A stretch of 64,000 nt of DNA from Candidatus Hydrogenedentota bacterium (GCA_019637335.1 JAHBVV010000018.1:64107-128106); one strand, 5' to 3'; counted from the stretch's first letter, positions 25,157 through 50,290 are shown. Translations and numbers: made by a program. Notes: generated by a model not told the origin, from the sequence alone.

Positions 25157-25201
25157 TAGTGGATAATTTGGTCCGGAATAAAGTGGATAAAAAAATCCAC
25201 T
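25157..25201. promoter_or_regulatory. Candidate operator: direct repeat AGTGGATAA x2 and perfect inverted repeat AGTGGAT-N6-ATCCACT in the promoter region of the nar locus
   Basis: tagtggataat at 25157-25167, then agtggataaaaaaatccact at 25182-25201. AT-rich island in an otherwise GC-rich genome, sitting between the Rrf2 gene and the first nar-locus gene. Confidence 0.35.
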
Positions 25202-25241
25202 ATATTGGGCCTGGTCACGGGCCCCATGGAGAGGCAATTTG

Positions 25242-26150
25242 ATGCTTGCGAACCTGCCCCCGCTTCGATTCCGCGGCCGCCGCCTGGCGGCGCTGCTGAT
25301 CGCCGCCGCGCTGGCCCTCCCCTGTGGCGTTGCCGGCGCCCAGGAGACGGCGGCGGAAGCGCCCGCCCCCGAGACGCCCGCTGAAACCGCCGAAGCCGCG
25401 CTCGCGCCGGATGCACCGGCCGCCGCGCCCGAGGACGTGGCGGCGCAGGCCTACGCGACCAAGTGCATGGGCTGCCACACGATTGGCGGCGGGGCCCTCT
25501 CCGGCCCCGACCTCAAACCATCTGCCGCGTGGCCCCGGAAGAACCTCTGGGACGCGATCAAGCGCATGGAGAAGAACGTGGGGCCAATGGCGGATGAGGA
25601 AATCGACCTGCACACCGACTTCCTCCTCGCCGTTGACGCGGCGGAGCGGATCGCTGAGGCGCAGAAGCAGGCCGCGCTCAGGCACGCGGCCACGATGGAA
25701 CCGGCTTCGGCGGATACGGGCCGCGCGCTCTTTCTGGGGCGGACGCCCTTTGCCAATGGCGGGCTTGCGTGCGGCGCGTGCCACCAGGCGGGCGGTCGCG
25801 GCGGATCGCTGGCCTCCTCGCTGGAAGACGCGTTCACGCGGCTGGGCGAGGCCCCGTTGATGGCCGCCTGCGAGTCGCCCGGCTACCCGGTCATGCGGGC
25901 CATGTACCTTGACTCCGCGCAGCCGGTGACCCGGCAGGAAGCGCTTCACGTGGTGAAGTACCTGGAGCAGGTCTCTGGCCAGCCGCAATCCGCGATCAGC
26001 ATCCCGCTGCACCTGCTGGGCGTGTTGGGCGCGGGGGGGACCGTAGTGTTGCTCGCCACCCGTTACAAGAAGACCCCCGGCGGCACGCGGGCGCGTCTCG
26101 TCGCGCGCGCCTGCCGCAAGCAGGACACCGGCCAGGACCAGGGAGTTTAA
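25242..26150 (+). CDS. Membrane-anchored diheme cytochrome c
   Basis: Signal peptide; two CxxCH motifs (CMGCH, CGACH); C-terminal hydrophobic helix; RBS ggagagg. Stop lies 5 nt before the narG ATG. Confidence 0.7.
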   Translation: MLANLPPLRFRGRRLAALLIAAALALPCGVAGAQETAAEAPAPETPAETAEAALAPDAPAAAPEDVAAQAYATKCMGCHTIGGGALSGPDLKPSAAWPRKNLWDAIKRMEKNVGPMADEEIDLHTDFLLAVDAAERIAEAQKQAALRHAATMEPASADTGRALFLGRTPFANGGLACGACHQAGGRGGSLASSLEDAFTRLGEAPLMAACESPGYPVMRAMYLDSAQPVTRQEALHVVKYLEQVSGQPQSAISIPLHLLGVLGAGGTVVLLATRYKKTPGGTRARLVARACRKQDTGQDQGV

Positions 26151-38099: not shown

Positions 38100-38730
38100 G
38101 CCTCTGGCCGCAACCGAAGAAATGATCACCACGAAGGGCACGAAGACCACGAAGAGAAAGAGAGTTGAAGCTTTGACCTCAGAGAACGCAGAGAGCGCAG
38201 AGAACGCAGAGAGCGCAGAGAGCGCAGAGGATGGCTCTTGTACGCAGATGAAGTAGGTGGTTGAATGAGGGTGCGTTTTTGACCACGAATGGACACCAAT
38301 GCACACGAATGCGCCTCGAGCAGCCACTGGCCGCGATCAGGATTTGTGACCACGGATGACACGGATGACACGGATAGCAATTGGTTCCGGTCGTTGAGGC
38401 GTGCCGGCGGCTGCGTGCGATTTTCGACGCAGCCTGTTCGGATTGCCCAGCATCGAAATGGTAGCGGAGTGGATCGGGCGGCGGGCTGCTTCTTCTTGTT
38501 TGTTTCGAGTGCCGCTTCAATCCGTGTCATCGGTGTAATCCGTGGGCAAGAAAAGAATTTCGACCACGAAACTTGCGGAACGGCCGGGAGATACTCCTTG
38601 GATCTATCGCTTCGTAAATGCTTTTACAACAGACGGTTATATGGATCTTGAACGAAAGAACTTGCTGAAAAAACAAGAAAATGACGGATAGTAGTACGAA
38701 GGGCACGAAGAGAAGAAGTTTGAGAAGGAT
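38100..38730. repeat. Composite intergenic repeat element, copy C (same family as copies A and B)
   Basis: Modules atgatcaccacgaagggcacgaagaccacgaagag (38118-38157), five GCAGAGARC tandem units (38186-38229), accacgaatggacaccaatgcacacgaatgcgcc (38282-38315), tgtgaccacggatgacacggatgacacggatag...ttccggtcgttgaggc (38344-38400), and tacgaagggcacgaagagaagaagtttgagaagg (38694-38727). Confidence 0.55.
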
Positions 38731-38916: not shown

Positions 38917-39840
38917 TTACCGGGCGGCAGCGCCCAGCAGATCCTTCAGTGCGCCGGCCAGGTCCGGGTAGGCGAATTCATAGCCGGATTCCAACAATCG
39001 CACCGGAATAACCCGCCGGCTCTTCAGGACGAGCTCCGTTTCCGTCCGGATAATGGTCGCGCCCGCCTCCAGGAGCCACGTGGGCAGCGGCAGCCCCAGA
39101 GGCATCCCGCAGGCGCGGCGCAATGCGTGCATGAACTCGGCGTTCAACACCGGGGCGGGCGCCGCCAGGTTAACCGTGCCCGCGATCGTTTCGTGGCGGA
39201 TAATGTGATCCGCCATCCGCGCGAAATCCGCCTCGTGCAGCCAGCTTACGTACTGCCGGCCATTTCCCTGGCGCCCGCCGACACCAAGCCGCGCGAGCAC
39301 CCGCATCGGCGTCAAGGCCCCGCCGCCCCGCCCCAGAACGATCGCGGTGCGCAGCGCAACCCGGCGCACGGTTCCTGGTATGGGCGCATCGAAGAACGTT
39401 TGCTCCCAGCGCTGGCAGACTTCCACTGAAAACCCTTCGCCGATCTCTCCGGTCGGCTCGTCCATGTTCCGGTCTTCCGCATGGCGGTATATTGTTCCCG
39501 AGGATGCGTTCATCCACAGCCGGGGCGGATGGGCGCAGGCCGCCACGGCCTCCGCGAGCATCCGTGTGGATTCCAGGCGTGAACTGTATATTGCCCTCCG
39601 GTTTGCTTTCGTGTAGCGGCAGTCCACCGACTTCCCGCTCAGGTTGATCAGCACAGCCGCGCCCTCCAGGTGCGCTGCCCACGGTCCGGGAGTTCTCCCG
39701 TCCCAGGCGAGCACGCCGCCCGGTCCCCGCGCATGACCGGGCCGGCGAGTGAGTGTGTATACCTCGTGGCCCGCCTCCGTGAAATAGCGCCGAAGCACCT
39801 GGCCCAGGAATCCACTTCCGCCCGCGACGACAAGCTTCAT
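38917..39840 (-). CDS. Epimerase-family protein (SDR39U1/YfcH-like NAD-dependent epimerase with DUF1731 C-terminal domain)
   Basis: N-terminal VAGGSGFLG Rossmann motif. 307 aa, the typical length for this family. ATGA overlap with the upstream TetR gene. Confidence 0.65.
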   Translation of the reverse strand: MKLVVAGGSGFLGQVLRRYFTEAGHEVYTLTRRPGHARGPGGVLAWDGRTPGPWAAHLEGAAVLINLSGKSVDCRYTKANRRAIYSSRLESTRMLAEAVAACAHPPRLWMNASSGTIYRHAEDRNMDEPTGEIGEGFSVEVCQRWEQTFFDAPIPGTVRRVALRTAIVLGRGGGALTPMRVLARLGVGGRQGNGRQYVSWLHEADFARMADHIIRHETIAGTVNLAAPAPVLNAEFMHALRRACGMPLGLPLPTWLLEAGATIIRTETELVLKSRRVIPVRLLESGYEFAYPDLAGALKDLLGAAAR

Positions 39841-40532
39841 CGCCCATCCTCCGCCGCCGGGGCCGCGCTTGTGGCGAGCTCCACAATGCGCGCGGCGGCC
39901 TGGCTGATTCCGCCCATGAAGGGCAGTGCGGTGGCCTGGATGAGTTTCTGGATCAGCCCGAGGCTCACGGAAATCAACTCCCGGGTGCGTTGCTGGTTGG
40001 CGGAGGCGTCGTTCACCCAGAACAGAATGACGCCCATCTGGTAGAGCCAGAGGATGCGCGCCAGGTGCGGGCGGATTACCGCGTTGGCCTTCAGGTTGCT
40101 CCCCTCCAGCGCCTGCTCGATCAGCGCGATGGCTTCGTCGCGCACGGGCTTGGTGTTCGGGCTGAACGGGGAAAGCGGGTGGCTCCAGTCCGCCGCGTGC
40201 CGCGCGAGCACGGTGGTCAGGGCGCGAAACGGGGCCATCTGCGCGAGCTTGAACTCGATCAGGGCCGCCATGCGCTGCTGAAAATCCTTCGAGGCCGCCA
40301 CAATCTCCCAGTTGTGATCCCGGGCCTCCGCGCCGGTGTGCGCGTAAAAGTGCAGCACGAGTTCGTCTTTCGTGCGGAAGTAGTAGTAGGCGGCGCCCAG
40401 GGACATGCCCGCCTCGCTGGCGATCATGCGCATGGTGGTCTTGTCGAAGCCATGGGTTTGGAAGAGTTCCAGGGCGGTGGCGAGGATATGGGACTGGGTG
40501 GCTTCGCTCTTGGCGGTTTTTTTGGGGGGCAT
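39837..40532 (-). CDS. TetR/AcrR family transcriptional regulator
   Basis: N-terminal ILATALELFQTHGFDKTTMRMIASEAGMSLGAAYYYFRTKDEL is the TetR HTH signature. Confidence 0.75.
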   Translation of the reverse strand: MPPKKTAKSEATQSHILATALELFQTHGFDKTTMRMIASEAGMSLGAAYYYFRTKDELVLHFYAHTGAEARDHNWEIVAASKDFQQRMAALIEFKLAQMAPFRALTTVLARHAADWSHPLSPFSPNTKPVRDEAIALIEQALEGSNLKANAVIRPHLARILWLYQMGVILFWVNDASANQQRTRELISVSLGLIQKLIQATALPFMGGISQAAARIVELATSAAPAAEDGR

Positions 40533-40599
40533 GGTCTGGCCTTTCTGGTTTGAACACGTTCAAAGTATAGCCCGGGAAAGGGCCGCTGTCAAGCAGAAC

Positions 40600-40642
40600 C
40601 CGCAAAGAAAAAGCGGCCCGCATCCACTGCTGGATGCGGGCC
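40600..40642 (-). terminator. Rho-independent terminator downstream of the minus-strand multiheme cytochrome operon
   Basis: On the minus strand: gcggcccgcatccagcagtggatgcgggccgc (13-bp perfect stem) followed by tttttcttt. Confidence 0.55.
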
Positions 40643-40668
40643 GCATAATGGGCAGTCTGGAGGAGCGC

Positions 40669-41277
40669 TTACTCCTGCTTCGCCTTCATCGGGTTCGGGT
40701 GCTCGATGATTTTCACCGCCTGCTCGTAGTCGAAGCCGGCCTTGGAGCCGTCTTCCTTCGTGTATTTTTCAGGATCCCAGGTGGGGCTTTCTTCATTGTG
40801 GCACTGGAGGCAGAGGGACTCCTCGACTTTCAGGAGGTTCGCCATCCAGTCGACCTCCTCCGAAGTTTTCTTCTTGAACATGACGTCCTTGCCTTCGGCG
40901 ACGTGGAATTCGCCGGGGCCGTGGCAGGTTTCGCACTGGACGCCCATTTCGGGCTTAATCTTTGCCGGCGCGGCCATGGCCTGGAAGTCGTAGGCCGTGA
41001 CGTGGCACTTGAGGCACTCGGGGGCTTCGTGCGGGGGCTTGGTCATGCCGCGCTCCTGCGCGACCTTCAGCGCCGCCTCGCTCTTGAGGTTTTCGAAGGC
41101 CTTGGAGTGTTTCTCCGCCTTCCAGGCGGTGAACTGGGCGCCTTCGGGCTTCTTGTCGTGGCAGACCTTGCACTGATCCGCGCCAATGTACTCGGGTTTC
41201 TTGTCCTGGGCGTGCGCGACGCCCGCAGCCAGCATCAGAGCGACCGCGCCGATGAGACCTTTACGGAAGAATTGCAT
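40669..41277 (-). CDS. Periplasmic tetraheme cytochrome c
   Basis: aaggagg RBS; signal peptide; four CxxCH (CKVCH, CLKCH, CETCH, CLQCH); 202 aa. Confidence 0.75.
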   Translation of the reverse strand: MQFFRKGLIGAVALMLAAGVAHAQDKKPEYIGADQCKVCHDKKPEGAQFTAWKAEKHSKAFENLKSEAALKVAQERGMTKPPHEAPECLKCHVTAYDFQAMAAPAKIKPEMGVQCETCHGPGEFHVAEGKDVMFKKKTSEEVDWMANLLKVEESLCLQCHNEESPTWDPEKYTKEDGSKAGFDYEQAVKIIEHPNPMKAKQE

Positions 41278-41415
41278 GGTACCTCCTTCAATTTCTGATT
41301 TTTGTCCTGGCAATGCGTGGCTGCCCGCGCAATACCTCCAAGTATAGCGCACATTCACCGCGCGCGAAACTTTTTTGTGCGCGAACCCCGCGAACTGGAC
41401 GCGGGACGGCGCGAA

Positions 41416-42549
41416 CTATTCATGGCACACCCGGCAGGCGACCGAATTGTTGGTCGGGTGCGGGGCGCGGTGCGGCAGCCCGCCCGGGTGGCACTCGGCG
41501 CAATTCGTCGGGAAGATGCCCAGGGTGTGCGGCGACCGGGTCGACGTCCGGTGCTCGATGTTTTCATGGCAGACGGTGCAGGAGGTTTCCTGCGCGGGGA
41601 AGTGGCAGGAGACGCAGTGCTGGTTGCGCGAGCCGCCGAATCCGGCGCGATGGGAGCGCGGCGCGGTCTTCTCGTGGCATTTGATGCAGGAGTCTTCCTC
41701 GTGGCAGACGGCGCAGCTCTCGCGGTTGATGAGGGCCTGGAGGCCATGGGGTTTGCGGCGCCAGGCGATGGTGTGGTTTTGCGGCTTCTCTCGGCTGTGG
41801 CAATCGTCGCAGGTGGCCACCGTATCGTGGCACATGGCGCAATACTGTGGGTCGAACTGGGCCTCTTTACCGTGTATTTTCAGCCAGAGGTCCGGCGAGT
41901 CGTGCGCGATGCGCGCGCCGCTGCGGAACTTGGGGCGGGTTTCCTCGGTGATCTCGGAGTGGCAAATCGCGCATTCGTTGGCGACAAAGGCGATATTGGG
42001 CTCGCCCGACTCCAGCATGGGCGCGTCGCTGGTCTTGTGGCAATCCATGCACCAGGGCATGAGCGGGCCCTTCGGGAGATCGGGGATTTCGCCGGGGGTC
42101 TTGTGGCACTCCATGCAGGAGATTTCCGCGTCCATGTGCTCGGCGTGTCCGAAGATGGTCTCCACGCTCATGCGCTTGACCAGGGGATCGACCGACTGGT
42201 CGTCGCGGGTGTGGCAGAAGCTGCACGCGGCCCGGTCGGCGGCCGGGACGTTTTCCTGGGCTTCGACCGCCATCACGACGTCGAGATCGATCTCGTGGCA
42301 GATACTGCACAGGTCGTGACCGGGCATCACGTGCGCGGCGTCTTCCCAGATGTGGCAGGTGGTGCAGTCGAGCTGCTGTTCGATATGCGCGTTGTGGCCG
42401 GACTTGAGGCCGCGGCTGTGCGGTTCCGGCGCCGCGGCGCGCCCGAAGAGGGCGCCGCCGAAGATGAACGCGGCGCAGTAGAGCGCCACCCCGGCTGCCA
42501 GGGTCCAGCGGAAGCCCCGCCCGCGGATTATTTCCATTCCATTCTTCAT
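41416..42549 (-). CDS. Multiheme cytochrome c with about 14 CxxCH motifs; N-terminal signal/anchor
   Basis: 14 CxxCH motifs counted in 377 aa, about one heme per 27 aa. Start codon overlaps the stop of the upstream beta-barrel gene (TAATG). Confidence 0.8.
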   Translation of the reverse strand: MKNGMEIIRGRGFRWTLAAGVALYCAAFIFGGALFGRAAAPEPHSRGLKSGHNAHIEQQLDCTTCHIWEDAAHVMPGHDLCSICHEIDLDVVMAVEAQENVPAADRAACSFCHTRDDQSVDPLVKRMSVETIFGHAEHMDAEISCMECHKTPGEIPDLPKGPLMPWCMDCHKTSDAPMLESGEPNIAFVANECAICHSEITEETRPKFRSGARIAHDSPDLWLKIHGKEAQFDPQYCAMCHDTVATCDDCHSREKPQNHTIAWRRKPHGLQALINRESCAVCHEEDSCIKCHEKTAPRSHRAGFGGSRNQHCVSCHFPAQETSCTVCHENIEHRTSTRSPHTLGIFPTNCAECHPGGLPHRAPHPTNNSVACRVCHE

Positions 42550-44222
42550 TAGAATCGTATCCGGTAGCCGGCCCGGAGCCGCCAGTATGGCGAATCGGGC
42601 GCATCATCTTCCTCGAAGGATACCTTGGCGAATAGCTCCTGGTCCTTCCGGAACTCCCATTCGATATCGGTAAAAATGCTGTAAACGTTCTCGCGCGTAT
42701 CCACCACCCGGGTCGCCGCGTATTGCGCGAAGAATGACCTGCCGGGATAGACGCCGGGAAGCAGGGCGACGATCGCGTCGTTCAGTCGCGCGGTGCGGTA
42801 GTCATACTCGATGACGCGATCCTTGTAGCGCACGAAATCGACCCCCGCGCGCCACTTCACGGTTTCCCACTTCCGCTCGACCTCGCCGGTCACGGTCCAG
42901 TAGCCCTCGCCCTCCGAGGTGTCCCAGTATTCGAGGGAGGTGGAGACATCGAATTCGCGGTACAGGTCTTCGACGTACAGGACGGTGGCGAGGCGGTAGT
43001 AGTCGCGGCTGCCGGTGTAGAAGTCGTCGTTTTTCGCGTCGCGGATTTCGCCTTCCAGGGAGAGGGTGACCCGCTTGGTGATTGGGCGGTGCAGGCCGAT
43101 GTAGAGGGTCTTGTGTTGCCGGTACTGGCCCAGGATTTGGTAGAAGGGCGAGAGATCCGCCGTGGTGTCGCCGGTCGTGTCGAAAAGCTGGCGGTAATCC
43201 ACGTCGTAGAGGAGATCCAGCCGCGGTATGTAGCCGTTGAGGCTGAGCACGAGTTCGTTCACGTCGCCTCCGAGCGTGCCCAGGCGCGCGAAGAGGCGGG
43301 TGTTTACGCCGAAGCTGTGCCAGAGGCTCAGGGTCACGCGGCTGTCATTGATTTCATTGGCGATGGGCCGGTTGAAGCCGCCCAGCAGGGAACTCCGGCG
43401 CGCGCGGGCGACGCCATAGCGGCTTTCCTCGGCATAGTAGCCGTCCAGCGCGAGGCGCGTGTGGACGCCCGGTATAAAGGCGACGCCGCCGCCGAGCACG
43501 AGATCGTCCGAGGTGTCGCGGTATATGGAGGCGCGGGCGCCGATGAAGCCGTACCACTCGAGCCGGTCGTGGCGCTTCTTGAGGTACAGCCCGTCCACCC
43601 GGTTGTAGGTCGCGCCCTCGCGGATGCGGTGCCGCCCCAGGCGCAGCACGGATTGATCGCCCAACACGCCGTCGATGTCGGCGTACAGGTAGAGCAGCCG
43701 CGCCTGCACATCGGAGGCGGACGCGTCGTTGATGTCGCGCAGGGTATTGGGTTTTCCGCGGTCCGAGGAGAGGTCCTGGTGCAGCCAGAGCGATCCGCGC
43801 AGGTGCAGCCGGGGCATTTGGGGCGGGTCCATCTCCAGGCGCAGATACTCGCTCAGGTCCCAGTCGTTTCCGCCGCCGGAGATAACACTGTCGATTTCCG
43901 CCTCAAAGGAGCCGCGATACCAGGGCGCGGTGGCGGCCCGCGTTTCCGGCGCTTCCCCCGCGTCGGGCGGGGTTTCACCCGAGTCCTCTTCCGCGGGCGC
44001 TTCGTCGCCCTCGCTCTCGGGAGCCGCATCCTCCGGCGGCGCTTCGGCCGCCGCCTCCGGACTGGCGGCCTCCTCGACGACCGTATCCGGCGCGGCTTCG
44101 GCGTCCTGGGCGCGGGCGGCCGGGTGGAAGCAGGCGGCGATCAGCAGGATCAACAAGGCGATCCCCCCGCCGCAACGTTTCGCTTCGTGCCTTCGAGAAA
44201 GCAACGCCCGTAACCTTTCCAT
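42549..44222 (-). CDS. Putative outer-membrane beta-barrel (porin-like) protein encoded between multiheme cytochrome genes
   Basis: Signal peptide (…LLILLIAACFHPAARA-QD). Acidic A/E/P-rich N-terminal linker. Long stretch of alternating hydrophobic/polar residues rich in Y/R/D. C-terminal …YRIRF matches the OMP beta-signal (terminal Phe, hydrophobics at -3/-5). Start assigned at MERLR; the six-frame ORF extends further upstream without a signal peptide. Confidence 0.5.
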   Translation of the reverse strand: MERLRALLSRRHEAKRCGGGIALLILLIAACFHPAARAQDAEAAPDTVVEEAASPEAAAEAPPEDAAPESEGDEAPAEEDSGETPPDAGEAPETRAATAPWYRGSFEAEIDSVISGGGNDWDLSEYLRLEMDPPQMPRLHLRGSLWLHQDLSSDRGKPNTLRDINDASASDVQARLLYLYADIDGVLGDQSVLRLGRHRIREGATYNRVDGLYLKKRHDRLEWYGFIGARASIYRDTSDDLVLGGGVAFIPGVHTRLALDGYYAEESRYGVARARRSSLLGGFNRPIANEINDSRVTLSLWHSFGVNTRLFARLGTLGGDVNELVLSLNGYIPRLDLLYDVDYRQLFDTTGDTTADLSPFYQILGQYRQHKTLYIGLHRPITKRVTLSLEGEIRDAKNDDFYTGSRDYYRLATVLYVEDLYREFDVSTSLEYWDTSEGEGYWTVTGEVERKWETVKWRAGVDFVRYKDRVIEYDYRTARLNDAIVALLPGVYPGRSFFAQYAATRVVDTRENVYSIFTDIEWEFRKDQELFAKVSFEEDDAPDSPYWRLRAGYRIRF

Positions 44223-44248
44223 GTGCCGGTGTGCCGGCGTTTGCGCGA

Positions 44249-45316
44249 TCAGGGCCGCGCCCCGAGCATTTCGTAAAGGGATTGCAGGTATTCGTTGTTG
44301 GCCCGATCCGCGGGATTGTGCGCGGTCCCGGAACCCGGCGCGCTGGAATCGTGGCAACCGGTCACGCCGGCGCACGAATTGGGCGGCGCGGGCGTGACGC
44401 CTTGCGCCACGGCGTCGTTCGTGGCGATGGGCGGAATGGTAAACAGCGAGTGGTCGTGCCCCGCCGCGCCGCCGGCGTCCAGCGGCGGGAGGTGACAGCT
44501 CGTGCAGCGGCTTGCGCCCGACCCCGCCGGATCGACCGGATGGAAGGGGCCGGTGTGAAAATCGACGTCCGCGTCGGTCCGGAAGCCGAGCTGCGCACTC
44601 TGGTGGCACTGCAGACAGAGGCGGTTGTCCGCCGGATTGGCGCGGAACATGTCGCCCTGGTGCATGTTGTGGCAGCTTGCGCAGGTGGCCACGTCCAGCT
44701 GCGCGTGGGTGCTCGCGGCGAAGCCCGCCACGGCGCCCTCGTGGCACTCGCCACAGAGCATGGCGTAGTTTTCGCTGCCGAACCGGGCGGGCGAAGTGGC
44801 GCTGATCGCCATGCCTCCCTGCTTGTGCACGTTGTGGCAATCGGTGCAGGTTGCGGCGCCCGCGTTGAAGTGCGCGGTCCGCAGGAAGCCGCTCACCGAA
44901 TCACCGCCCGGCGTCGTGGTGTCCGCGTGGCATTCGGTACACGCCGCGTGCCGCTTTTCGAATGGCAGGCGCCCGGGATTATCGATGAAGAGGCCGAAAC
45001 GCCCGCCGTTGCGGACATGCCGCAGGCCGGGGCCGTGGCAGGTTTCGCAGGAGATGGACTTGTGGGGCCCCTGGAAGTGCTCGCGCTGGTCGCTTGCGCT
45101 GCGGCCGTCGTGGCAGGCCATACAGGTGGCCGTGCCGACCTCGCCGGGCCCCAGTGCGGTCCCGCGGCATCCGTCCACGCCCAGCCCGAGCAATGCGGCC
45201 GCCGCCAGGCCGAATCCTCCCAGCGCCGCGCGCGCGCGCCGCATGCGGCGGCGTGGCGAGGCCGCCGCGATTACACCGCGCACCCCCTCCCCCATTCCCA
45301 AATTACGGTCCACCAT
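44249..45316 (-). CDS. Octaheme c-type cytochrome (periplasmic; start uncertain)
   Basis: Eight CxxCH (CMACH, CETCH, CTECH, CTDCH, CGECH, CASCH, CLQCH, CTSCH) plus one CX5CH-like site. Hydrophobic N-region RRARAALGGFGLAAAALLGLG. Alternative starts at 45295 or 45244. Confidence 0.65.
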   Translation of the reverse strand: MVDRNLGMGEGVRGVIAAASPRRRMRRARAALGGFGLAAAALLGLGVDGCRGTALGPGEVGTATCMACHDGRSASDQREHFQGPHKSISCETCHGPGLRHVRNGGRFGLFIDNPGRLPFEKRHAACTECHADTTTPGGDSVSGFLRTAHFNAGAATCTDCHNVHKQGGMAISATSPARFGSENYAMLCGECHEGAVAGFAASTHAQLDVATCASCHNMHQGDMFRANPADNRLCLQCHQSAQLGFRTDADVDFHTGPFHPVDPAGSGASRCTSCHLPPLDAGGAAGHDHSLFTIPPIATNDAVAQGVTPAPPNSCAGVTGCHDSSAPGSGTAHNPADRANNEYLQSLYEMLGARP

Positions 45317-45401
45317 GTTCCCTCGCCGATCCAACCCGTTTCTCCGCCCGCCCAGCAGCCGCCGGAGACTACGCTGGCGTATCCCGGTCTTGCGGCATTG
45401 G

Positions 45402-45604
45402 CTGTCTGGCGCCAGACAGTAAGCAATCTTGTTGCCAACTCCCGAACGGAGTGGCGCTTGGTTCCCAATGGCGTTCACGCTAGCACGAACGCGCGAGCAA
45501 GTCAAACAAAACTACCTTGCGAAACGAACCGATCTGGTGTAAGGTGGAGCAGTAACCGGCGCACTACTGTGCAATTGAGCAGGCGCCGGGTGTTCAATTG
45601 AACA
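45402..45604. promoter_or_regulatory. Divergent promoter region of the cytochrome cluster with two perfect palindromes
   Basis: ctgtctggcgccagacag (45402-45419; 18 nt) and tgttcaattgaaca (45591-45604; 14 nt). Both lie in the about 600-bp intergenic gap between the minus-strand octaheme operon and the plus-strand decaheme gene. Confidence 0.3.
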
Positions 45605-45930
45605 CATCGAGATCACTTCTGAGCGACGGGGGGAATCCGGACCCGATAGTGAGTGACGGAAATGGCCGAAAATGCGCGGGTAGACGGGCAAATCGAGGGC
45701 CGGGGAAGCAGACGGTAATCTTGGCATGGAAACGGCTTGCATTGCAGGTTAGATAGCCAGCATCAGGGCAGCAAATGGCCATGGCGGCTGTCGAATTGGA
45801 AGTGTGTCGCATCGGATCCGCATGGGGTCGGCTTCGGTCGTGGCGACCACGGCGCCGGAGAGCGAGTTGGGAATCCGCCCGTAGAGGGCGTTCAGGAACG
45901 CACGGGGAACCGTGAAGGGAGAATCAGGTT

Positions 45931-48003
45931 ATGGCCAGCCAGCGTGAAGTGAGGAAAGCCACCGGGTGGGCGTTCGTGTCGTTGTTAGCGACCGCCGTTC
46001 TGTTGGTGGGCTGCCCCGTGACTCCAAATCCGGATCCGGACCCGGATCCCGACCCGGAACCCCAGGTGGTGGTTCCGGTTTCCACTTCACCGGGCCTGAA
46101 CGTGGAAATCGAGAAAGTGGAGATCCCGGCGGACCTGAAGCCGGTGATCCATCTTACGATCACGGACAACGCGGGCCAGCTGATCCCGTTGCGCGAACTC
46201 ACGGACGCGCGCTTCATTCTGGCTTACCTGAATCCGTCGCCTCCCGAGGGGAGCACGGCCCACTACATCAGCTATAACACCCGAACGGAAGCCGCGGCGG
46301 GCGGCGGCACGGTGCTGCAGGCGACGTACGACGGGGCCGGGCTGGGCGGCCTGACCCAGAAAGCGGACGGGACCCTGAGTTATAAGTTTGGAACGGCCCT
46401 GCCCGCGGACTATATCGAAAGCGCCACCCACCAGATCGGCGGGCAGCTCTCGCGGCGTTTTCCCATCGACGAGGTCGTTTATCCCGCGAACGCGGACTTC
46501 AAGTTCCGCCCGGACGGCGGCATGGAACTGGGCGCCCGCGAGATTGTGAACACGGAGACGTGCAACGTCTGCCACACGCGGTTGGCGGTTCACGGTACGC
46601 GCCGCGAAGTACAGCTTTGCATCCTCTGCCACAACCCGGGATCGACGGACGGGAACACGGGCAATTCGGTCGATTTTGCGGAGATGATACATAAGATCCA
46701 CCGGGGCGCGGGCCTGCCCAGCGTGCAGGATGGCGAGCCCTACCAGATCATCGGTTTCCGCAACACGGTGCACGACTATTCCGAGGTGCATTTTCCGCAG
46801 CCGGTACAGAACTGCACGGCGTGCCACGCCAACACCGACATGGCGAACATCTACATGACCACGCCCACCATCGCGGGTTGCGCCTCCTGCCACGACCGGA
46901 CCTGGTTCGGCGATCCGCTGCAAACGCCGGCGGGCTGGGAAAACCACCTGGCCGGCCAGCAGGTTGACAATCGCCTGTGCGCGCTGTGCCACACGCCGAC
47001 CGCGCCCGGGCCGTCTCCGATCATGGAAGCGCACCGGCTGCTGACCGATCACCCGAACGCGCCGGGTCTCGCGCTGACCGTCAACCGCGTGACGACGGCC
47101 GAGACCGAGACGGGCATCGCCGTGACAATCAACTTCACCGCGGAGGACGAAAGCGGCGCGCCGTACACGCAGCTTTCCGCGCTCTCCACGGTCGCGGCGA
47201 CGGTCGCCTACCCGGCCGCCGAATACGAGACTTCATTCCGCGAGACGATCAACGCGGGCAATTCCGTCGCTAATGGGGATGGAACCTTTAACTACACATT
47301 TAACCGCCAGCTACCCGCGGGGCTTACCGACACCGTCGCCGTGGCGATGGACGGCCGGTTGAACTTCGCCATTGGCGACCTGAACGTGACCCAGGGCACC
47401 TCGTCCAACGGCCGGATGATCTTCACGGCCAACAACAGCCAGCCCGTCGAGCGGCGCCAGATCGTGGACGACGCGAAGTGCAATGCCTGCCACGGGGAGG
47501 TCCGGCTGCACGGAAGTCTGCGCGTCGGCGTCGAGTACTGTGTGATGTGCCACAACCCGAGTTCCTCGGACATCAACCGGCGGCCGGAAGGCGCCGGCGA
47601 TCCGGAGACGATCAACTTCAAGGACATGATCCACAAGATCCACCGCGGCGCCGAGCTGGAAAGCGGCTACACGGTCTATGGCTTCGGCAGCACCGCGTTC
47701 GATTTCACCGGCGTGCACTTCCCTGGCGACCTGCGCGCCTGCGAAATGTGCCACGTCGAAGGCTCCTACAGCGTTCCGCTGGCTATGGAGACCCTTTCAA
47801 CCATTGTGACGGATGCGGCCGGCGCGCTTCTGAGGGAGAAGCTTCCCGAGCGGGCGGCCTGCGTATCCTGCCACGACAGCCTGATTACCGAGGTGCACGC
47901 GATCCTGCAGACCGACCCGAACACACGGGTGGAGTCTTGTTCGGTGTGCCACGGCAACAACGCGGATTTCTCGGTGCTCGACGTCCACAACATGGGCCCG
48001 TGA
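45931..48003 (+). CDS. Decaheme c-type cytochrome lipoprotein (MtrC/OmcA-like outer-surface cytochrome candidate)
   Basis: Lipobox LLVGC followed by PNPDPDPDPDPEP linker. Ten CxxCH motifs arranged as two homologous pentaheme halves, each ending in the motif (F/N)xxMIHKIHRGA. Confidence 0.8.
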   Translation: MASQREVRKATGWAFVSLLATAVLLVGCPVTPNPDPDPDPDPEPQVVVPVSTSPGLNVEIEKVEIPADLKPVIHLTITDNAGQLIPLRELTDARFILAYLNPSPPEGSTAHYISYNTRTEAAAGGGTVLQATYDGAGLGGLTQKADGTLSYKFGTALPADYIESATHQIGGQLSRRFPIDEVVYPANADFKFRPDGGMELGAREIVNTETCNVCHTRLAVHGTRREVQLCILCHNPGSTDGNTGNSVDFAEMIHKIHRGAGLPSVQDGEPYQIIGFRNTVHDYSEVHFPQPVQNCTACHANTDMANIYMTTPTIAGCASCHDRTWFGDPLQTPAGWENHLAGQQVDNRLCALCHTPTAPGPSPIMEAHRLLTDHPNAPGLALTVNRVTTAETETGIAVTINFTAEDESGAPYTQLSALSTVAATVAYPAAEYETSFRETINAGNSVANGDGTFNYTFNRQLPAGLTDTVAVAMDGRLNFAIGDLNVTQGTSSNGRMIFTANNSQPVERRQIVDDAKCNACHGEVRLHGSLRVGVEYCVMCHNPSSSDINRRPEGAGDPETINFKDMIHKIHRGAELESGYTVYGFGSTAFDFTGVHFPGDLRACEMCHVEGSYSVPLAMETLSTIVTDAAGALLREKLPERAACVSCHDSLITEVHAILQTDPNTRVESCSVCHGNNADFSVLDVHNMGP

Positions 48004-48082
48004 TCGCGGGATTCGCCAGTATAATCAGTAGTACGGGTCGCGGGGAAGGTGGTAGTACCGAGCCGCCTTCCCCGCGGCATCC

Positions 48083-49558
48083 ATGATGGTTCGGGCCGTA
48101 GCGCGGGAGAATGGATTCATGACAAGGACACCCAGGGGATGGAAGTGGGCTATCGGCCAACTTGTCTGGCGTAACTGGCTGACGTTGTTCGGCAGCAGCC
48201 TGACCACGGTGAGCGCACTGGCGATTATCGTGTTCATGGTGCTTGGGGGGGCGGGCGTCGCCCTTTCGCCCTATATCGGCCTGCTCACGTACCTGGTGCT
48301 CCCGGGAATCTTCGTTTTCGGCCTGCTGCTCATTCCGCTGGGCGCCTGGGTTGACCGGCGGCGGCGCCGCCGCCTCAACGAAGATGAGCCCGCCCATATC
48401 GATCTGGATTTCAACAACCCGCGCATCCGGCGGCTGGCGATGATCGTCACCGTGCTTACGGCGGCCAACATCGCCATCATATCGGCGGTGAGCTACGAGG
48501 GCGCGGTGTACATGGAATCGGTGGCTTTCTGCGGCACGACATGCCACACCGTGATGGAGCCCGAGTTTACGGCCCACATGAACTCGCCGCACGCGCATAT
48601 CAGCTGTGTGGAGTGCCACATCGGCCCGGGGCTGTCCGCGATGGTCCACGCGAAGCTCAACGGGCTCAACCAGGTGTACGGCGTGCTGACGGGCTCGTAT
48701 GAACGCCCAGTGCCGACGCCGGTGCACGGCATGGCGAACGCGGAGCTTACCTGCGGCGAGTGCCACAACCCGGGCATGGATCTGGGGAACACCTTGCGGG
48801 TAACGACGGATTACGCCACCGACGATGCGAATACGCCCCTGACGTCCGTTCTGCTGATGCGCGTGGGCGGGCGGGGCGTCGAGGGCACGGGCATCCACAA
48901 CTGGCACCTCGCTCCCGGCCGGGAGGTCTACTTCTATTCGCCGGACGACAAACGGGAAGTGATCACCTATGTGAAGGTGGCCAATGAAGACGGCACGGAA
49001 GTGGAATACTTCGTTGACGGGGCCGAGGTTGACCCCGCCTCCCTGCCACCCGGCGCCTTGCGGAAGATGGACTGCACCGATTGCCACAACCGGGCGAGCC
49101 ACGTCTTCGAAATGCCGGGTCCCGCGTTGAACAAGGCCATTGCGCGTGGCGAGATCGATGTTGCGCTGCCGTCCGTGAAGGCGGCGGGCCTGGAGGCGCT
49201 GGAGGGCGCGGTCGCGGCGGAGGATGGCCCGGCCTTCATTGCGAAGTCGGTACAGGACTATTACGCGGCGAACTACGCGGACGCCGCGGCGCAACAGCAA
49301 GCGCTGATCGATCGGGCGATCGCGAGCATGCAGGGCATATACAAGCGCAACATCTTCCCGAAAATGAATATCGGGTGGGGGACGTATCCCGACCACAATG
49401 GCCACACCATGTTCAATGGGTGCTTTCGCTGCCACGACGACGGTCACAGCAGCCGCGACGGCGCGCACGTCATCAGCCAGGACTGCACCGCGTGCCACAA
49501 CGTTGTTACGTGGCAGGAGGAGAACCCCGAAATACTTTCGACCCTGGGGCTTCAGTAA
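48083..49558 (+). CDS. Membrane-anchored hexaheme cytochrome c (quinol dehydrogenase candidate)
   Basis: Two N-terminal TM helices. Six heme sites: CGTTCH (a CX3CH variant), CVECH, CGECH, CTDCH, CFRCH, CTACH. An alternative start at 48119 (MTRTPRGWKW) has a better RBS. Confidence 0.7.
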   Translation: MMVRAVARENGFMTRTPRGWKWAIGQLVWRNWLTLFGSSLTTVSALAIIVFMVLGGAGVALSPYIGLLTYLVLPGIFVFGLLLIPLGAWVDRRRRRRLNEDEPAHIDLDFNNPRIRRLAMIVTVLTAANIAIISAVSYEGAVYMESVAFCGTTCHTVMEPEFTAHMNSPHAHISCVECHIGPGLSAMVHAKLNGLNQVYGVLTGSYERPVPTPVHGMANAELTCGECHNPGMDLGNTLRVTTDYATDDANTPLTSVLLMRVGGRGVEGTGIHNWHLAPGREVYFYSPDDKREVITYVKVANEDGTEVEYFVDGAEVDPASLPPGALRKMDCTDCHNRASHVFEMPGPALNKAIARGEIDVALPSVKAAGLEALEGAVAAEDGPAFIAKSVQDYYAANYADAAAQQQALIDRAIASMQGIYKRNIFPKMNIGWGTYPDHNGHTMFNGCFRCHDDGHSSRDGAHVISQDCTACHNVVTWQEENPEILSTLGLQ

Positions 49559-49654: not shown

Positions 49655-50290
49655 ATGACGCGTTCGGTTCAATGCACGGTGTGGGCGGGGCTGCTGGTCG
49701 CCGCGGGTTGCGTGACGCCCGAGGTTCGCTACGAGACGATTCACGAGGCGGCCGCCGAAGGGAACACGCACGATGTTGCGGCGATGGTCGATGGCGGCCA
49801 ATCGATCAACGCGCGGGGCGAGCACGGCATGACGCCGCTGCATAGCGCTGCCGCCTGGGGCAATGAGAACATCATGGCGTACCTTATCCGCAACGGCGCG
49901 GAGGTGAACGCGACGAACGACTGGGGGCTCACGGCCCTGCATATTGCCGCCGCCCGGTGCCACGATCACGATGTGTTGTTTCTTCTCGAGCACGGGGCCG
50001 ATCCCAACGCCCCGACCAACGCGAGCTGGACGCCGCTCCATTATGCGGCGGCCCGCGGCAACGTGCAGGTTACCCGCACCTTGCTCGACGCCGGGGCGAA
50101 CCCGGACCTCCAGAACCAGACCGGCGACACGCCGCTGCACCGCGCCGCGCGCAACGCCAGCGAAGACGTGGTGCGGCTGCTTCTGGAGCGTGGCGCGGAC
50201 CCGGCCCTGAAGAACGCCGACGGCGACACCCCCGCCGCCGCCGCGACCCGCGAGGGCCACGCGAACATCGCGGCGATCTTCGGGCGGTAG
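49655..50290 (+). CDS. Ankyrin-repeat lipoprotein
   Basis: Lipobox LVAAGC; five ankyrin repeats (G.TPLH.AA..G motifs). Confidence 0.75.
   Translation: MTRSVQCTVWAGLLVAAGCVTPEVRYETIHEAAAEGNTHDVAAMVDGGQSINARGEHGMTPLHSAAAWGNENIMAYLIRNGAEVNATNDWGLTALHIAAARCHDHDVLFLLEHGADPNAPTNASWTPLHYAAARGNVQVTRTLLDAGANPDLQNQTGDTPLHRAARNASEDVVRLLLERGADPALKNADGDTPAAAATREGHANIAAIFGR

Follow-up and report, generated by a model that had tools for sequence, protein, structure and literature searches.

Extracellular electron transfer is established mainly in Shewanella and Geobacter, and the Hydrogenedentota are uncultured bacteria with a reputedly fermentative or syntrophic way of life. A stretch of 64,000 nucleotides from Candidatus Hydrogenedentota bacterium (GCA_019637335.1, JAHBVV010000018.1:64107-128106; hereafter, the window, with a G+C content of approximately 65%) carries, between positions 40,669 and 49,558, six neighbouring genes that encode five multiheme cytochromes and one heme-free protein. 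The question raised by this locus is whether these products form an electron conduit across the outer membrane and, if so, of which kind and working in which direction. A first-pass annotation of the window had claimed for them the architecture of a porin-cytochrome conduit, and this claim is supported by a barrel model, by synteny and by the predicted lipoprotein cytochromes. From these data we infer a complex, a topology and a direction of flow that would probably make the cluster a conduit of the porin-cytochrome type known as Pcc, equipped with Mtr-type and ImcH-type modules and conducting electrons outwards. The coordinates and strands previously given for the six genes were all borne out by our open reading frame (ORF) calls, and the genes are designated as follows:

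A, 44249..45316, minus strand: cytochrome with 8 CxxCH motifs
B, 42549..44222, minus strand: heme-free protein of 557 aa, 0 CxxCH, predicted barrel
C, 41416..42549, minus strand: cytochrome with 14 CxxCH
D, 40669..41277, minus strand: cytochrome with 4 CxxCH
E, 45931..48003, plus strand: cytochrome with 10 CxxCH
F, 48083..49558, plus strand: cytochrome with 5 CxxCH and 1 CGTTCH (CX3CH)

Together, these genes provide 42 heme sites, or 43 if a conserved CX5CH motif of A binds heme, and each of the remaining ORFs of the window contains two CxxCH at most, a concentration of heme motifs in the cluster that is far beyond chance. The counts of 8, 14, 4 and 10 hemes proposed earlier hold for A, C, D and E, respectively, while the six assigned to F resolve into five CxxCH and one CX3CH.

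The heme-free protein B gave no match in searches against Pfam, NCBIfam and the PDB sequences; a hypothetical protein of a Candidatus Hydrogenedentes MAG is 100% identical to it. Its N-terminus shows a positive charge followed by a hydrophobic stretch up to ARA/QD, indicative of a signal peptide, after which comes an acidic linker of approximately 60 residues rich in Ala, Glu and Pro. The protein ends in YRIRF, where Y553 and F557 are invariant among 31 homologues. Of the outer-membrane protein hallmarks attributed to B in the first-pass annotation, the predicted signal peptide, the acidic linker and the C-terminal YRIRF are thus present. An AlphaFold2 monomer model built on the alignment of the 31 homologues (pLDDT 74.6, pTM 0.67) leaves residues 1-100 disordered and arranges residues 102-556 in 22 beta-strands. 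A non-barrel or soluble outcome was specifically looked for, and the model returned a 22-strand barrel, with a signal peptide predicted ahead of it. This model predicts that B forms an outer-membrane beta-barrel of 22 strands without a plug. The protein has no specific relation to MtrB, is not MtrB-like in sequence, and does not qualify for membership in the 26-strand MtrB/PioB barrel family.

The gene that follows the barrel, C, is tightly coupled to it, with a single base common to the stop codon of B and the start codon of C (TAATG, an overlap already noticed in the first-pass annotation). Its product accommodates 14 CxxCH in approximately 340 mature residues, that is, around 24 residues per heme, and all 14 motifs are invariant among 43 homologues. 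The C family profile matched the ActA pentaheme subunits of alternative complex III (1e-20 to 1e-16), the dodecaheme cytochrome GSU1996 (3ov0; 3e-16) and MtrA (6r2q_A; 4e-8), and C itself scored 19.2 bits on the MtrA/DmsE model TIGR03508, under the cut-off of 192.2. Judging from these similarities, C is composed of c7/ActA-like modules. A lipobox Cys is found in most C homologues and has been lost in the clade of the window and in two others.

Conservation of these genes was assessed by a scan using one genome per species, which yielded 37 loci, nearly all of them in metagenome-assembled genomes (MAGs) of Hydrogenedentota. A few carry the labels Nitrospirales/Nitrospiraceae, FCB group or Bathyarchaeia, which are probably due to labelling or binning problems; one such MAG, a "Bathyarchaeia archaeon" that is probably mis-binned (L037, DATKVG010000064.1), bears a full conduit with A, B, C, E, F and D. 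All ORFs of 41 fetched loci, approximately 38 of which are distinct, were then classified by BLAST. The 14-heme C follows B in every locus that extends far enough, and an A with either 6 or 8 hemes precedes B in all but one. The exception, in a Hydrogenedentes MAG (L029, 44..1288), has a different cytochrome 5' of the barrel, with at least 20 CxxCH and cut by the contig end. Loss of the barrel gene from homologous loci was looked for, and every locus keeps it beside cytochromes. D, E and F behave as accessory genes, each occurring, in varying positions, in around half of the flanks sequenced. In two MAGs, two A-B-C trios coexist, one with a 6-heme and the other with an 8-heme A (L025 and L031 in JAPYPO; L030 and L036 in CAYXRK), and this pairing in the gene content suggests that conduits may be specialised according to partner or acceptor.

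Relatives of the barrel extend far beyond this phylum. A profile search of the B family against 1.84 billion cluster representatives returned 487 proteins at E<=1e-3, 46 of them at E<=1e-30. There is no Pfam or NCBIfam model for the family; the distant relatives looked up are un-named or labelled hypothetical, and no Pfam barrel domain was found in the ten that were scanned. Two apparent fusions were discarded. P0228 (976 aa; L043, 7001..9931), seemingly a barrel joined to a cytochrome, is a frameshift artefact, given that the barrel ends in another frame (...LTWNF-stop) and that the cytochrome part has its own lipoprotein signal; P0291, a ResB-barrel "fusion", contains an internal signal peptide and was set aside.

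Six distant genomic contexts were inspected, belonging to SAR324, an unnamed contig, "Deltaproteobacteria TL4", a JGI contig, Omnitrophota and Brocadiales. In all six, the barrel gene is located directly 5' of a gene encoding a cytochrome of 322-352 aa, save for an inserted pair in the anammox locus, and this cytochrome has 12-14 CxxCH wherever DNA was available. The two genes usually overlap, the overlap being of 1 nt in the window and of 11-17 nt in L002, L003, L042, L044 and the JGI contig. The next gene in the five non-anammox loci encodes a protein of 720-1000 aa, with 10-13 hemes in the four cases with readable DNA and an MtrC-like domain in three of four; a large multiheme or MtrC-domain protein adjoins the pair in five of the six distant loci. 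A NapC/NirT-type cytochrome gene lies nearby in all six: it is ImcH-sized (447-507 aa) in four, unscored in SAR324 (L042), and encodes an NrfH-like protein of 156 aa in the anammox locus. D-like genes were also present in the SAR324 locus, and A was not found in any of the six loci sampled from other phyla.

The nearest out-group is the anammox Brocadiales cluster (profile E 6e-52). The barrel of Ca. Wunengus shares 24% identity with the whole of B (E 4e-24), and the 13+1-heme lipoprotein of the same organism shares 32% identity with C, also over the full length (E 5e-56). At this locus (L046, 759..5783), a small ParE-type toxin/antitoxin pair sits between the barrel and its partner, and NrfH-like and NrfA-like genes lie 3' of the 13+1-heme partner.

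These features lead to the Pcc family, defined by a porin-like protein of 18-22 strands that is always beside a cytochrome of 5-14 hemes (PMC4245776). Clusters of this family in Ca. Kuenenia, Anaeromyxobacter and Ignavibacterium encode a cytochrome of 338-400 aa with 12-14 hemes that has been proposed to span the membrane alone, the cytochromes of the Kuenenia pair measuring 338-344 aa with 12-14 hemes (PMC4245776), and a porin-cytochrome complex is up-regulated in electrode-dependent anammox (PMC7188810). The 22 strands predicted for B and the 14 hemes of the adjoining C fall within both ranges. As in Pcc clusters, the barrel is smaller than MtrB and is coupled to a 12-14-heme cytochrome of approximately 340-400 aa, with further genes for inner-membrane, periplasmic and outer cytochromes nearby. 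By its features, then, the B+C core matches a Pcc-type pair, homology having been shown with the Brocadiales relatives, whose features agree with those published for the Kuenenia pair, rather than with the named Kuenenia or Geobacter proteins. Unlike Pcc clusters, that of the window adds a phylum-specific lipoprotein 5' of the barrel (A, with 6 or 8 hemes plus CX5CH), its outer cytochrome E belongs to the OmcA/MtrC family instead of being OmcB-like, and its host is a member of the Hydrogenedentota. The cluster had previously been regarded as plausibly an undescribed module, a view that holds for the host phylum, for A and for the combination of parts, but not for B and C, whose relatives in anammox bacteria and other phyla fit Pcc.

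The probable true start of A is M25, at position 45244. On TIGR03508, A reached 73.8 bits, well under the 192.2 cut-off, and its best PDB match was 6r2q_A, the MtrA chain of the Mtr complex (1e-7), so that in sequence it appears remotely MtrA/DmsE-like. Among homologues from approximately 35 loci, a conserved Cys is found past a hydrophobic stretch, 10-15 residues ahead of heme 1, and because of this arrangement A is predicted to be a lipoprotein. The first-pass annotation had described an octaheme periplasmic cytochrome; the eight hemes stand, but A would be a lipoprotein and not a free periplasmic protein. The A forms with six hemes lack a 56-residue insert that bears hemes 5 and 6. Near the C-terminus, the motif PPNSC[AS]GxxGCHD, which includes a CX5CH (residues 315-322 in the window protein), is invariant in approximately 35 homologues and may bind an extra heme in an atypical manner, bind a metal or form a disulphide.

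In the divergent operon, E scored 410.8 bits on the OmcA/MtrC model TIGR03507 (cut-off 209.3), covering positions 7-672 of the 672 of the model. PF22113 matched it twice, and its PDB matches included MtrF (3pmq; 6e-33) and OmcA (4e-24). The protein is organised as a beta domain, five hemes, a second beta domain and five more hemes, preceded by the lipobox LLVGC and a (PD)n spacer, in agreement with the earlier description of a decaheme lipoprotein with two pentaheme halves. A CX8C disulphide is a feature of domain III of the Shewanella OmcA/MtrC proteins; E has no Cys between hemes 5 and 6, and the CX8C is consequently absent. Homologues of E in Hydrogenedentota are already named as OmcA/MtrC family proteins in NCBI and JGI records. 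Judged by its profile score, E is a true member of the OmcA/MtrC family, which exceeds the mere Mtr-like logic suggested for it in the first-pass annotation. Cytochromes confined to the periplasm had been considered as an outcome that would speak against a conduit; what was found is that A and E, and C in most of its relatives, are predicted lipoproteins.

The second gene of this operon, F, encodes a protein of approximately 490 aa in which hydropathy windows delimit three hydrophobic segments (residues ~32-58, ~63-91 and ~115-138), followed by CGTTCH at residue 150, 12 residues past helix 3, and then by five CxxCH. The same 5+1 pattern is found in the F homologues of L001, L002 and L004, and genes resembling F also lie with the barrel in other phyla. 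Similarity of the NrfH/NapC type (46 bits on NrfH TIGR03153, residues 123-230; 22.8 bits on PF03264; PDB NrfH 2j7a_C, 5e-5) is centred on the third helix and the first hemes. The ImcH homologues are characterised by three helices, an adjoining CX3CH and 5-9 CX2CH in approximately 495-519 aa (PMC6295460), and F presents three N-terminal helices, the CX3CH and five CX2CH. In these features, and not through a comparison with GSU3259, F matches the ImcH architecture. With respect to ImcH of G. sulfurreducens, F shares the three helices, the CX3CH and a length of approximately 490 aa, but has five typical motifs instead of six and is encoded beside a conduit, whereas no mtrAB or mtoAB is reported next to imcH (PMC6295460). 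Of the membrane-anchored hexaheme cytochrome initially described, the membrane location is retained, with three hydrophobic segments rather than one anchor and five CxxCH plus the CX3CH as heme motifs; its proposed function as the quinol-oxidising entry point is compatible with the ImcH-type features, from which an oxidase role may be deduced. Finally, D has a classic cleavable signal peptide (...AGVAHA/QD) and, with 66.9 bits on PF13435 (cut-off 20.8), falls into the c554 family of tetraheme cytochromes.

A comparison with MtrCAB of Shewanella (PDB 6R2Q) reveals both shared and divergent traits. E fills the place of the outer OmcA/MtrC decaheme lipoprotein, sharing its lipobox and its arrangement of four domains with 5+5 hemes; A and C are both remotely similar to MtrA; and both systems follow the logic of a barrel that encloses a heme wire and is complemented by a decaheme cytochrome at the surface. 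In contrast, there is no MtrA/DmsE-family decaheme cytochrome above the cut-off, since A, with 8 hemes, and C, with 14, both score below it, and E lacks the domain-III CX8C. Furthermore, E does not form one unit with the other genes, as mtrC, mtrA and mtrB do, but sits with the putative quinol oxidase F in a divergent operon. Because two of the three defining proteins fail, the cluster is not MtrCAB. A survey detected mtrCAB in no more than three phyla, of which Hydrogenedentota is not one (PMC8805035). Also comparable by description are the EET1-4 clusters of Acidobacteriota and Verrucomicrobiota (bioRxiv 10.64898/2026.05.27.727921), for which the available part of the preprint reports a syntenic porin with periplasmic and outer multiheme cytochromes, low identity to Mtr and Omc proteins, and MtrC-like and MtrA-like folds; they belong to other phyla, and Hydrogenedentota are not mentioned in that part of the text.

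Placed in order, these proteins suggest the following path. F, as an ImcH-like inner-membrane cytochrome, would oxidise menaquinol, and D, as a soluble c554-type tetraheme protein, would ferry the electrons across the periplasm. C would serve as a 14-heme wire inside the 22-strand barrel B and cross the outer membrane, A (8 hemes plus CX5CH) would dock at the barrel, and the surface decaheme E would reduce insoluble or large acceptors such as Fe(III)/Mn(IV) oxides, humics, electrodes or a partner cell. C, rather than A, is favoured as the occupant of the barrel because the B-C pair is deeply conserved and translationally coupled, because A is absent from the other-phylum relatives sampled and is replaced in L029, because several clades do without the lipid anchor of C, and because C has the thinnest polypeptide per heme. 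Pairwise identities are correlated to a higher degree between B and C (0.73) than between A and B (0.65) or A and C (0.53), which constitutes weak evidence for B-C coupling. It is the exposed partner that varies or is swapped in the clusters of Geobacter (PMC6148476), and by analogy A fits the role of a peripheral, possibly external, cap.

Anchoring in the inner leaflet is the default fate of lipoproteins, and this counts in favour of a topology resembling that of Geobacter, in which A would face the periplasm from the inner leaflet, like the octaheme OmaB, C would play the part of the 12-heme OmcB as the outer lipoprotein, and both would meet inside the barrel. The 8 and 14 hemes of A and C parallel the 8 and 12 of Geobacter (PMC4245776), a lipobox is retained in most C relatives, and A is more MtrA-like than C by single-sequence search. 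However, the loss of the lipobox from C in the window clade and others is hard to square with a surface protein in need of an anchor, and the cytochromes of 338-400 aa with 12-14 hemes have been treated as the periplasmic or inserted partner (PMC4245776). Moreover, A is missing from the conduits of other phyla and is replaced in L029, and such variability marks the exposed partner in Geobacter (PMC6148476). This arrangement is possible but less likely. As regards direction, the presence of MtrC-type and ImcH-type modules favours outward flow. Electrons could instead travel inwards, as proposed for MtoAB and PioAB, with Fe(II), reduced minerals, a cathode or a partner cell as the source and the quinone pool or periplasmic reductases as the destination. 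In principle, a porin-cytochrome conduit can work in either direction, and inward flow has support from related complexes (PMC6148476); the Cyc2 iron oxidase has been reported in MAGs of Hydrogenedentota (PMC9769843), and a gene for a nitrate/nitrite-type major facilitator superfamily (MFS) transporter lies 2.6 kb away. Nevertheless, an MtrC-type outer cytochrome is usually missing from Mtr-type clusters that serve oxidation (PMC4245776), whereas E is a full member of the OmcA/MtrC family, and ImcH homologues have been found only in Fe(III) reducers, where they are read as quinol oxidases (PMC6295460), which renders inward flow improbable.

The most distant alternative, that B is an ordinary diffusion or uptake channel lying among the periplasmic cytochromes of a soluble-substrate pathway, draws on the NrfH-/NrfA-like genes that follow the pair in the anammox locus and on one NCBI record in which a homologue of B (P0026) is called a TonB-dependent receptor. 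That label was rejected for B, which has no plug, TonB-box or TonB-dependent-receptor Pfam domain and whose first 100 residues consist of the signal peptide and the disordered acidic linker. In addition, the barrel gene overlaps the cytochrome gene and remains its neighbour in several phyla, the cluster includes no catalytic-type heme motif or enzyme, and two or three of its cytochromes are predicted lipoproteins, one of them of the surface MtrC family; the absence of any conduit is thus very improbable. Some observations do weigh against the outward-conducting Pcc-type conduit proposed here. Many relatives of A have a canonical lipobox, but that of the window protein, GVDGC, is non-canonical; C of the window has no clear lipobox or signal-peptidase site and could be membrane-anchored. 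The AlphaFold2 model of C, obtained with 43 homologues, is poor (pLDDT 63, pTM 0.44) and found no structural match in a Foldseek search against the PDB, and its shape is not used as an argument here. E, F and D are absent from about half of the sequenced flanks, many of the contigs being short, the link between F and ImcH is one of architecture, and the direction of flow is not readable from sequence.

The remaining features of the locus concern the limits of the two operons and a gene next to F:

40613..40644, minus strand: intrinsic terminator closing the A-B-C-D operon, a hairpin with a T-rich tail
45317..45930, no strand: divergent intergenic region of 614 bp, with the presumed promoters for both operons
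49655..50290, plus strand: G, an ankyrin-repeat lipoprotein (Ank repeats, 6e-39; lipobox LLVAAGC)

The strong intrinsic terminator noticed in the first-pass annotation was recovered as a hairpin with a 14-bp stem (11 G-C pairs) and a 4-nt loop, 25 nt past the stop codon of D. The promoter scan detected no sigma-70 consensus site in 45317..45930, and an Rfam scan of 38-52 kb, including the divergent intergenic region, found no family. Among the related loci, L001, L005, L006 and L007, which are the closest, alone retain G 3' of F, and it is a possible clade-specific accessory of the E-F operon. Directly past the operon terminator lies a TetR-family gene (39837..40532, minus strand) with its own sigma-70-like promoter (40592..40564). 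By analogy with OrfR/OrfS of Geobacter, it was considered as a regulator of the cluster and rejected, as no homologue occurs at any related locus; for the same reason, it is probably outside the module. The intergenic DNA that separates the MFS (NarK-like) transporter gene from an epimerase/DUF1731 gene contains short tandem repeats of 9 nt at 38180..38229 (5.6 copies) and 38351..38375 (2.8 copies). The sole other c-type cytochrome ORF of the window (25191..26150, plus strand) bears no relation to the cluster; it has two CxxCH and encodes a domain of the class I / cbb3-subunit-III type.

Searches of the accessible literature found no conduit in Hydrogenedentota, and in the context of multiheme cytochromes, MtrC or iron reduction gave only mentions of Cyc2 for this phylum. 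What is new in the locus is the Hydrogenedentota host, the extra lipoprotein A with its invariant CX5CH, and the way in which an MtrC-family outer cytochrome and an ImcH-type oxidase are joined to a Pcc-type barrel and its wire. The kind of conduit is already known and was to be expected, as divergent clusters of a similar sort are now being described from other uncultured phyla. A more elaborate version can be put forward only tentatively: the cluster would be a hybrid of two conduit lineages, in which a Pcc-type barrel and its 14-heme wire, capped by a Hydrogenedentota-specific A whose CX5CH binds an unusual additional heme, were joined by a separately acquired MtrC-type decaheme cytochrome to serve mineral, electrode or partner respiration, with the 6- and 8-heme paralogues tuned to different acceptors.

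Evidently, an outer cytochrome of the MtrC type can be paired with a barrel that is not related to MtrB, and surveys that require a complete mtrCAB therefore miss this cluster. The B family provides a ready metagenome marker for this class of conduits, and the invariant CX5CH of A constitutes a candidate new heme-attachment motif. If the proposed conduit is true, Hydrogenedentota, a widespread phylum found in groundwater, sediments and bioreactors, would join the candidate respirers of metals, humics or electrodes, or the candidate partners in direct interspecies electron transfer.

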